Positions 36,393 through 37,752 of a stretch of 64,000 nt of DNA are shown piece by piece (positions within the stretch are counted from its first letter, which is position 1; each line of letters opens with the position of its first letter). A program made the translations under genes and the position numbers. This DNA is from Promethearchaeota archaeon. GTDB lineage: Archaea > Asgardarchaeota > Lokiarchaeia > Sigyniarchaeales > SOKP01. The DNA is taken from assembly GCA_019058365.1 (NCBI GenBank), contig JAHPZE010000003.1, positions 259,448-323,447 on the forward strand, written 5' to 3'. The notes under the pieces were generated by a model, which was given only the letters and a program-made list of their open reading frames with translations, searched no databases and had not been told where the DNA came from.

Positions 36393-36416
36393 GATCATTT
36401 GAATGTGAATGAATTT

Positions 36417-37040
36417 ATGAAACCATGGTTATTTGACATATTAGCATGTCCTATTGATAAACATTTTCCACTAAAATTATACATTTTTTCTTTTGAAAAT
36501 AAACCAGAAGAATTTCAATCTATAATTGACATTTATAAAAACAGAGATATCACCATTATTAAAAAAGAAAAAATAATTGAGGTTTTTCAAGAAAATAATG
36601 AATATTTCTTAAGGGATAATATAGTTATTGAAAAAAACAAATTTCGATCCTATCTTGAGTTAATAATATCGAGTATAAATGAGTTTGAAAATATCTTTAA
36701 TAATTCTACAAACCAATTGAGTAAAAAAAGTTTTCAAATCATAAATTCTGAAGTTAAATCTAAAATTTTAGAAATTTTTAAAGATATAGAATTCCATCAT
36801 ATTGAAGATATATTTCCTGAGTTATATTTTATAAATAAGGTAAAATTAGACCTTGAAATTGAATCAGGTATATTATTTTGCAGCAAATGTAAACGTTGGT
36901 ATCCTATTATAGACACAATTCCACAGATGCTTCCTGATAAGTATCGTGATGAAAGAAAAGAAATTGAATTCCTTAAAACCAATAAAAATTTATTAGATGA
37001 AAAATTTTTTAATCAAGATCTTAAACCATTTAATATTTAA
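36417..37040 (+). CDS. trm112: Trm112-like methyltransferase activator with long insertion
   Basis: MKPWLFDILACPIDKHFPL ... IESGILFCSKCKRWYPIIDTIPQMLP. Confidence 0.8.
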   Translation: MKPWLFDILACPIDKHFPLKLYIFSFENKPEEFQSIIDIYKNRDITIIKKEKIIEVFQENNEYFLRDNIVIEKNKFRSYLELIISSINEFENIFNNSTNQLSKKSFQIINSEVKSKILEIFKDIEFHHIEDIFPELYFINKVKLDLEIESGILFCSKCKRWYPIIDTIPQMLPDKYRDERKEIEFLKTNKNLLDEKFFNQDLKPFNI

Positions 37041-37086
37041 AATTAAATAAAATAAAATATCTCAACTATTTCAAATACAAACTCTT

Positions 37087-37218
37087 AGCCCGGTGGTGTA
37101 GATTAATACATATATTATGTATTAAGTAAATTGGCCAAGCATTTGGGGCCTTGAACCCCGCGACCACGGTTCGAATATTAAAAAGGTTTCTGATTAATCG
37201 AAATTCCGTGCCGGGCTA
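37087..37218 (+). tRNA. tRNA-Gln(UUG) with two non-canonical introns (about 37102-37131 and 37176-37204)
   Basis: Acceptor AGCCCGG/CCGGGCT+A (A1-U72 typical of archaeal Gln), D stem GTGT/GCAT, anticodon arm TGGGG-CCTTGAA-CCCCG, T stem CACGG/CCGTG with TTCGAA. Confidence 0.85.
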
Positions 37219-37449
37219 TTATTTTTAATAATTTACTTAAAAAAATTTTTCAATTACAGATATTTTTAATTTTATATTTTTGACTACAAATTAAAAGTCA
37301 TAAAACTCAATTCTTAATTGGTATTTATCATCTAACTATAAAAAATTTTAAATAAGTTAAAAAAACCAAAATTTATAAATAATAAGAAGAAAGATTTATT
37401 TTTCTTGCAAGTAAAATATAATTTAATTAACTTTAAAGAAAAGAATACC

Positions 37450-37752
37450 ATGTTTAAATTCAGTTTGAAAAGAAAAGTAGGAAAAAAAAAATTGTTAACA
37501 CTATGTCTTTTAATTGCAGTGATTACTACTATATCTCTTGTTATTTTTGTTGCATTTTCAAATGCACCAGTTAGCCCTGATGATGGGAGCGGTGATAATG
37601 GGAGCGGTGATGATGATTGTTTTTGACACAAAACTTCTGGGAGTAATCTAATGGAAGATAGCATTCTATATCAAAAAAATTCAGTTGATAATCAGAATTT
37701 TGATTTAGATCTCAAAGAAATTAAATCCTATTTGTGTGATCCTTATAAATAA
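37450..37752 (+). pseudogene. Small membrane-anchored ORF interrupted by an in-frame TGA at 37624 (pseudogene or readthrough)
   Basis: Basic N-terminus, TM helix, DDGSGDNGSGDDD linker, CF-TGA, then 41 more open codons. Confidence 0.35.
37579..37614 (+). repeat. 15-nt tandem repeat GAT(G/A)ATGGGAGCGGT x2 plus partial
   Basis: gatgatgggagcggt gataatgggagcggt gatgat. Confidence 0.7.

Follow-up and report, generated by a model that had tools for sequence, protein, structure and literature searches.

A functional tRNA-Gln(UUG) gene of a Lokiarchaeial genome is probably spliced twice, in its D-loop and its T-loop

A 132-nt gene on the plus strand of a Promethearchaeota/Lokiarchaeia metagenome-assembled genome (MAG) is very probably a functional tRNA-Gln(UUG) gene whose transcript would lose two introns, cleavage and ligation being read here from sequence. 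It occupies positions 37087 to 37218 of the window (the whole 64,000-nt stretch of DNA that was analyzed), in a 291-nt gap between the open reading frames at 36399-37040 (plus strand) and 37332-37664 (minus strand). The features of the locus are as follows.

37041-37086, plus strand: 46-nt spacer from the stop of the upstream syntenic open reading frame (36399-37040) to the tRNA 5′ end
about 37047-37060 (-40 to -27), plus strand: A/T-rich, TATA-like run within the spacer
37087-37101, plus strand: exon 1, tRNA positions 1-15 (acceptor 5′ strand, U8 and G9, D-stem 5′ strand G10-U13, A14 and G15)
37102-37131, plus strand: intron 1, 30 nt, site 15/16 in the D-loop, relaxed HBh′ motif
37132-37175, plus strand: exon 2, positions 16-59 (rest of the D-arm, anticodon arm, 4-nt variable loop, T-stem 5′ strand, T-loop positions 54-59)
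37151-37153, plus strand: anticodon UUG within the exon 2 anticodon loop CCUUGAA, preceded by C33 at 37150
37176-37204, plus strand: intron 2, 29 nt, site 59/60 in the T-loop, strict hBHBh′ motif
37205-37218, plus strand: exon 3, positions 60-73 (U60, T-stem 3′ strand, acceptor 3′ strand, discriminator A73)
37219-37226, plus strand: T-rich tail TTATTTTT, immediately 3′ of the gene

The acceptor strands AGCCCGG (37087-37093) and CCGGGCT (37211-37217) are perfectly complementary over 7 bp and are followed by A73 at 37218. When 37102-37131 and 37176-37204 were removed in silico, ARAGORN called a 73-nt tRNA-Gln(UUG), the product named in the original prediction; it called no tRNA in the unspliced gene or in either half-spliced form, so that the agreement holds after both excisions only. 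The product has a cloverleaf, the anticodon UUG, an A1-U72 pair and A73, the last two being typical of archaeal tRNA-Gln; CCA is not encoded at the 3′ end. The anticodon loop is unbroken, with no intron at 37/38, and both inserts end in AAAT↓T (the arrow marks a cut site). On direct reading, everything that had been said beforehand of the anatomy, the insert boundaries, their shared ends and the lack of a 37/38 intron holds. The suspicion that standard scans may miss the gene was also well founded. The unspliced gene went unreported when ARAGORN was run on the whole window and when Rfam was searched at its gathering threshold or, for the local 400 nt, at E ≤ 10; a genome-wide search with Infernal and RF00005 gave no match at 37087-37218 either.

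The TATA-like run is a putative promoter element, read as such from its sequence in AT-rich surroundings, and the tail TTATTTTT is likely an archaeal oligo-T termination signal. The 3′ flank begins with TT or a T-run in 27 of 30 distinct genus-type genes (see below), the exceptions being L005 (CC), L054 (CT), and L055 (TA). A scan for sigma-70 promoters and intrinsic terminators, a type of scan that does not apply to archaea, gave nothing useful.

To score splice motifs, every pair of cut sites in the gene was placed in the canonical register of outer helix h, 4-bp central helix H, bulge NN↓N, and inner helix h′. The T-loop insert gave the top bulge-helix-bulge (BHB) in the gene (H 4/4, h 5, h′ 5), in which the T-stem CACGG/CCGTG serves as h, TTCG/CGAA as H and ATTAA/TTAAT as h′, with bulges AA↓U and AU↓U. 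It is thus a strict hBHBh′ motif, as expected of an archaeal EndA-dependent intron, and the earlier description of this insert as a textbook BHB was confirmed in its helices and bulges. The geometry is that of the canonical 37/38 intron transferred to another 5-bp stem with a 7-nt loop: in both, the stem supplies the outer helix, loop nucleotides 1 to 4 enter the central helix, and the intron is bounded by cuts 3′ of loop nucleotide 6 and 5′ of loop nucleotide 7. The T-loop intron differs in lying in the T-arm rather than in the anticodon arm.

The D-loop insert is built differently. It contains a 10-bp hairpin, TTAATACATA/TATGTATTAA (37103-37112 and 37116-37125), and a central helix, GTGT/GTAA, in which three of the four positions pair, two as G-U (U-A, G-U, U-G, and a G·A mismatch); the perfect hairpin and the weak central helix were both correctly described in the original prediction. 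The intron strand of this helix, GUAA (37126-37129), pairs with U11, G12, and U13 of the D-stem, and the bulges are AG↓A and AU↓U. The site scores H 3 and h′ 10, and an outer helix is absent both here and in all 25 relatives with a D intron. The insert therefore falls short of the strict hBHBh′ motif but fits the relaxed HBh′ motif (central helix, bulge, inner helix) defined by Marck and Grosjean, as cited in PMC4090602. In the minimum free energy (MFE) fold of the 132-nt precursor, computed without constraints, the T-site BHB and the hairpin of the D intron both appear, along with the anticodon arm and acceptor stem, but U8-U11 pair with G48-A51, and the weak central helix of the D site is missing. 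A register shifted to 16/17, with a 28-nt intron and a longer D-loop, scored about equal or slightly better. Since the motif alone cannot separate the two registers, the choice of 15/16 was made on compact orthologues, which, like intron-less members of the genus, read ...GUAG↓UGGCC... across the junction and rule the shifted register out.

Motif shape by itself is weak evidence for an intron in AT-rich DNA, because strict BHBs (H 4/4, h ≥ 4, h′ ≥ 4, 14 to 60 nt) occur about as often in the window (122 on both strands) as in dinucleotide shuffles of it (98 ± 11). For the same reason, a window-wide scan for strict BHBs was rejected as the sole finder of further introns. The case rests instead on the site-specific restoration of a tRNA, on covariation, and on compact orthologues. 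At these particular sites, random genomic sequence seldom matched the inserts: genomic 29-mers placed at the T site reached H = 4 with h′ ≥ 5 in 45 of 200,000 trials (~2 × 10−4), and 30-mers at the D site reached H ≥ 3 with h′ ≥ 10 in 6 of 200,000 (3 × 10−5).

In a pattern search of 40 related genomes, 20 of the 24 that belong to the same genus proved to have the gene, and a scan of all GTDB species matched 32 records, mostly labeled Promethearchaeota or Promethearchaeia. The genes of Loki_b32 and ABR06 are near-identical to 37087-37218. Among 30 distinct genus-type genes, the mature tRNA is conserved and inserts occur at three sites (15/16, ~48/49, and 59/60). Exon 1 is unchanged throughout, and the mature sequence varies at positions 26, 33, 44, and 59 only, leaving 69 of 73 positions invariant. 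At all genus loci, the tRNA follows the same upstream gene, whose tail reads ...DLKPFNI. Positions 26 (37143) and 44 (37161) change together (U26/C44 in 23 genes, C26/U44 in 7), suggesting a constrained tertiary contact.

The inserts, in turn, diverge while their pairing is kept. Because a whole-gene MAFFT alignment put the D-site exon in the wrong place in the intron-less rows, covariation was assessed on per-intron alignments. Across 25 distinct D introns, h′ was 98% paired with 5 pairs changed on both sides; across 6 distinct T introns, 7 pairs of h′ were changed on both sides. In each case, 0 of 500 shuffles reached the observed value, and sliding the partner columns as a control abolished the pairing of D and T introns alike. 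The D-site central helix is complete (4/4) in 6 of the 25 relatives. Its intron strand varies (GCAA, GUAA, GCAU, ACAU, ACGC) and stays complementary to the fixed exon strand U11-U13, pairing also with G10 in 6 of 25.

Searching with the exact predicted spliced sequence recovered a zero-intron orthologue on six AT-rich metagenome contigs (L056 to L061, including Ga0307433_1000883 and Ga0180433_10002751), all with the same upstream gene at 52 to 55% protein identity. These orthologues match the predicted product and differ from it only at the variable positions 26 and 44, so that both intron boundaries are fixed without any use of the motif. The T intron is likewise cleanly present or cleanly absent among orthologues.

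The relaxed motif at the D site raises the alternative that only the T-loop insert is spliced and that the D-loop insert is retained in the mature tRNA as an expansion hairpin. The absent outer helix, the 3 of 4 central pairs, and the lack of the central helix in the MFE fold are all compatible with it, and a preprint (10.64898/2026.10.13.758758) warns that some D-arm insertions may not be introns. Nevertheless, the stretch that follows the hairpin differs from species to species and yet always remains complementary to U11-U13, and that pairing blocks formation of the D-stem, so it makes sense only as a splice-site helix. The insert is also cleanly missing, with the exons unchanged, in 4 genomes of the genus and in the 6 orthologous metagenome contigs. 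In addition, 30 nt between G15 and U16 would part D-loop residues that make conserved tertiary contacts. We therefore consider a retained D-loop hairpin very improbable and favor excision of both inserts.

We next weighed whether the gene is in use at all. The genome (4.74 Mb, 29.5% GC) is 100% complete by marker genes and contains a single Gln-UUG anticodon arm, while CAA makes up 82% of Gln codons in 1,169 long open reading frames. The Gln-CUG isoacceptor (C40:10230-10302) is intron-free and shares 54 of 73 positions with tRNA-Gln(UUG); under wobble rules, it is not expected to read CAA. A second "tRNA-Gln(ttg)" called by ARAGORN at C7:107359-108410 was rejected as a false positive, given its 960-nt "intron" and AT-rich arms. 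A decayed tRNA-Gln that has taken up two junk insertions and fallen out of use might go unrecognized by ARAGORN and Rfam, as this gene does, and might carry C33 in place of U33. However, such a pseudogene should not be the sole Gln-UUG gene of a complete genome in which CAA is the main Gln codon, and it is on this ground that we reject it. Moreover, 69 of 73 exon positions never vary, whereas the inserts have diverged through compensatory changes; synteny is kept, and C33 is found in the compact orthologues too. Thus, we found no intact copy elsewhere, no decay of the exons, and no lack of conservation in the inserts. A second Gln-UUG gene and the conservation of the inserts were both checks named in the original prediction: the genome holds none of the former, and the inserts are conserved alongside nearly invariant exons. 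We give almost no credence to a pseudogene and retain the reading of a functional gene.

U33 before the anticodon is near-universal in tRNAs. Here, position 33 is C (window 37150), in the loop CCUUGAA. Among distinct genus genes, C33 was found in 16 of 30 and U33 in 14 of 30, and all 6 zero-intron orthologues have C33. The C33/U33 state flips approximately 7 times on a tree of the neighboring gene (judged by eye), and only three other exon positions vary. The tRNA-Glu(UUC) gene (G000 C35:140876-140977, minus strand) has C33 as well, in the loop CCUUCAC. C33 as a mark of all three tRNAs with a thiolated U34 fails, since Lys-UUU has U33.

Across orthologues, the gene forms a series from zero to three introns. 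The insert combinations seen are D only, T only, D+T (the source genome), D+V, and D+V+T, where V is a third intron of ~30 nt, located where the variable loop meets the T-stem (GAC↓...GCGAA↓CACGG). The V intron has the central helix CGCG/AGCG and an h′ of mostly 4 to 10 bp that covaries. D+V was found at 14 loci, and three further genes of 162 nt hold all three introns:

L001:1393-1554, minus strand: D, V, and T introns
L034:3627-3788, plus strand: D, V, and T introns
L050:1107-1268, plus strand: D, V, and T introns

We placed these patterns on a maximum likelihood tree of the upstream syntenic protein (36 rows, single gene, midpoint-rooted). Intron patterns were clustered on this tree, yet at least 7 changes are needed to account for them. 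The zero-intron contigs form a separate clade with 100/100 support. The D intron is near-universal in the intron-bearing group and missing from one clade, whereas the V intron marks one large clade and is absent from the clade of the source genome, whose sister L001 has all three introns. The T intron is scattered. Because the tree is of a single gene and only midpoint-rooted, each change on it may be a gain or a loss.

Four tRNA-Gln genes, L025, L027, L040, and L044, come from two Borrarchaeum species, another Promethearchaeota MAG, and one Thermoproteota-labeled MAG. Each is interrupted at precisely 15/16 by an insert whose GCAx strand can pair with the D-stem, and they have further introns elsewhere; the 15/16 site is therefore either old or used repeatedly. 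Separately, MAGs whose tRNA-Gln locus shares the upstream syntenic gene of the genus (L024 to L055) are named inconsistently at NCBI, as Promethearchaeota, Thorarchaeota, Hermodarchaeota, or Hodarchaeota, and several of them are identical at the locus to species of this one GTDB genus.

Interrupted tRNA genes are common in the source genome. A BHB-aware census was run in which acceptor and T-arm anchors were sought in GC-rich islands and the sequence was excised in silico before an ARAGORN call; this anchored version replaced an unanchored one that gave 3.9 million candidates from 575 of 1,388 regions. The census yielded 37 tRNA loci: 12 have no interruption, and approximately 25 need one or two excisions; the figure of 25/37 is approximate, as the census is crude, misses acceptor-stem introns (for example, in Lys-UUU), and sometimes ranks a wrong model first (for Glu-UUC, the second-listed model is the correct one). 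The excisions fall in the D-loop, at 23-26, at 37/38, and in the T-loop. Arg-GCG, Ser-GGA, and a third gene of unclear identity have hairpin inserts of ~30 nt at the T-loop site used by intron 2, the three loci being as follows.

G000 C33:63582-63685: tRNA gene with a T-loop insert
G000 C34:33969-34101: tRNA gene with a T-loop insert
G000 C39:21878-22010: tRNA gene with a T-loop insert

These similar inserts, together with the patchy distribution of the T intron on the neighboring-gene tree and the several gains or losses that it implies, are what one might expect if the inserts were recent copies of a mobile element, whether MITE-like or resembling the "transposed" introns of Thermoproteales. 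In a blastn-short search of the 4.7-Mb genome with both introns, however, neither had a significant match at another site (best non-self E = 0.064 and 0.12), and thus the hallmark of the Thermoproteales type, similar introns in different tRNA genes of one genome, was not seen. All T introns are exactly 29 nt long, and that of the source genome is identical at 22 of 29 positions (our own count) to the copy in a distant clade; one origin followed by vertical descent and several precise losses explains these data as well as transfer does. A preprint on Asgard tRNA genes (Goswami et al. 2026; 10.64898/2026.10.13.758758) describes repeated gains and losses with no general copying route evident. A recent mobile origin is therefore highly doubtful in our view; in any event, it concerns where the introns came from and does not contradict their splicing.

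The genome also encodes the enzymes that two-intron splicing would call for. Two of its genes have both N- and C-terminal EndA domains. The first (EndA α, 198 aa, in the region G000 C26:34764-34988) can be aligned end to end with the catalytic subunits of Aeropyrum pernix (3P1Z_B, E = 1 × 10−35) and Sulfolobus tokodaii, without gaps through the Crenarchaea-specific (CSL)/L1 loop, where GISKPR aligns with DVEKPR (Lys44) and thus has the Lys of the loop, and the catalytic His is kept in GPGLEHS. The second (EndA β, 206 aa, in the region C12:101662-101910) is closest to Methanocaldococcus jannaschii EndA and has Asp at the position of the catalytic His (KDSAKF versus KEHSVY), as would be expected of a structural β subunit. 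RtcB is present as well (568 bits). An α/β EndA pair with the L1/CSL loop, which points to broad specificity, is thus encoded together with an RNA ligase, and from these sequences and the work of Kaneta et al. (2018; PMC5829648) we infer an (αβ)2 heterotetramer and its range of substrates. The EndA architecture had been singled out as a check, and a catalytic subunit with the L1 loop plus a paralogue with Asp for His is what was found. The claim that this lineage has such splicing is supported by the bulge register, the covariation, intron-free orthologues equal to the predicted product, and α/β EndA with RtcB.

We propose the following route, in which the cleavage, ligation, and subunit assembly are predicted. 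A precursor of ~132 nt would be transcribed with two archaeal-type introns. The 29-nt T-loop intron would fold with the T-stem into a strict BHB, while the 30-nt D-loop intron would form a long hairpin whose 3′ segment pairs with the 5′ strand of the D-stem (U11-U13 and, in some species, G10), such that the D-stem could not form as long as this intron is present. An (αβ)2 EndA with the L1/Crenarchaea-specific loop would cut each 3-nt bulge after its second nucleotide, RtcB would join the three exons, and CCA would be added afterwards.

This kind of feature is already described in Asgard archaea. The original prediction held that noncanonical tRNAs with multiple introns are best described in Thermoproteales; this must be amended, since they have been published for Asgard archaea too (PMC5829648; PMC11291895; 10.64898/2026.10.13.758758). 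Kaneta et al. (2018; PMC5829648) reported an Asgard (αβ)2 EndA with an L1 loop and suspected undetected disrupted tRNA genes, and Valentin-Alvarado et al. (2024; PMC11291895) found 92 to 95% of tRNA genes interrupted in three Asgard genomes. According to Goswami et al. (2026), introns of the D-arm are common in Asgard archaea, tRNAscan-SE overlooks approximately 25 to 30% of the intervening sequences in Asgard tRNA genes, chiefly those of the D-arm, and T-arm inserts have mostly canonical motifs while those of the D-arm often do not. The gene described here resembles those systems in its D- and T-arm introns of ~20 to 30 nt, in its two EndA paralogues consistent with (αβ)2 and an L1 loop, and in a D-arm insert of the sort that annotators overlook; with a canonical motif in the T-arm and a relaxed one in the D-arm, it exemplifies the published pattern. 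The published work differs in its focus on Atabeyarchaeia, Freyr-/Jordiarchaeaceae, and single representatives; the main texts of the three studies mention neither Lokiarchaeia/Promethearchaeia nor tRNA-Gln. Here, in contrast, one syntenic single-copy orthologue was followed through ~36 lineages with 0 to 3 introns. The tRNA genes of Thermoproteales that hold as many as three BHB introns (Sugahara 2007/2008; Fujishima 2010; reviewed in PMC4090602) have the 59/60 site and the hBHBh′ and HBh′ motifs in common with this gene and likewise depend on a heterotetrameric EndA with the Crenarchaea-specific loop. They belong to another phylum, however, and near-identical introns recur across tRNA genes there, whereas we found no intron paralogue. 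The 59/60 site, multiple introns, and HBh′ motifs are known in Crenarchaeota (PMC4090602), and site 15/16 is not among the example positions given in that review. What is new is the occurrence of 0, 1, 2, or 3 introns at three sites in one orthologous gene across a lineage, and C33 in place of U33 in this tRNA-Gln(UUG).

A broader and more speculative reading takes the locus as a record of ongoing intron turnover in a Lokiarchaeial lineage (0 to 3 BHB introns at 15/16, 48/49, and 59/60), in which the patchy 29-nt T intron may spread between species by recombination and C33 could be tolerated through a lineage-specific modification or C-to-U editing. We offer it tentatively and regard it as rather unlikely as a whole.

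In practice, two widely used tRNA finders fail to see the main Gln tRNA of this organism and of the entire genus; automated annotation would for that reason wrongly report CAA, the main Gln codon, as unreadable. For the biology of archaeal tRNA introns, the locus provides a clean natural series of gain and loss in which gene, neighbor, and exons stay the same, and this series bears on the question raised by Goswami et al. (10.64898/2026.10.13.758758) of how intron DNA arrives. Finally, the gene supplies one strict and one relaxed substrate, both defined, with which the range of the Asgard splicing endonuclease may be tested.
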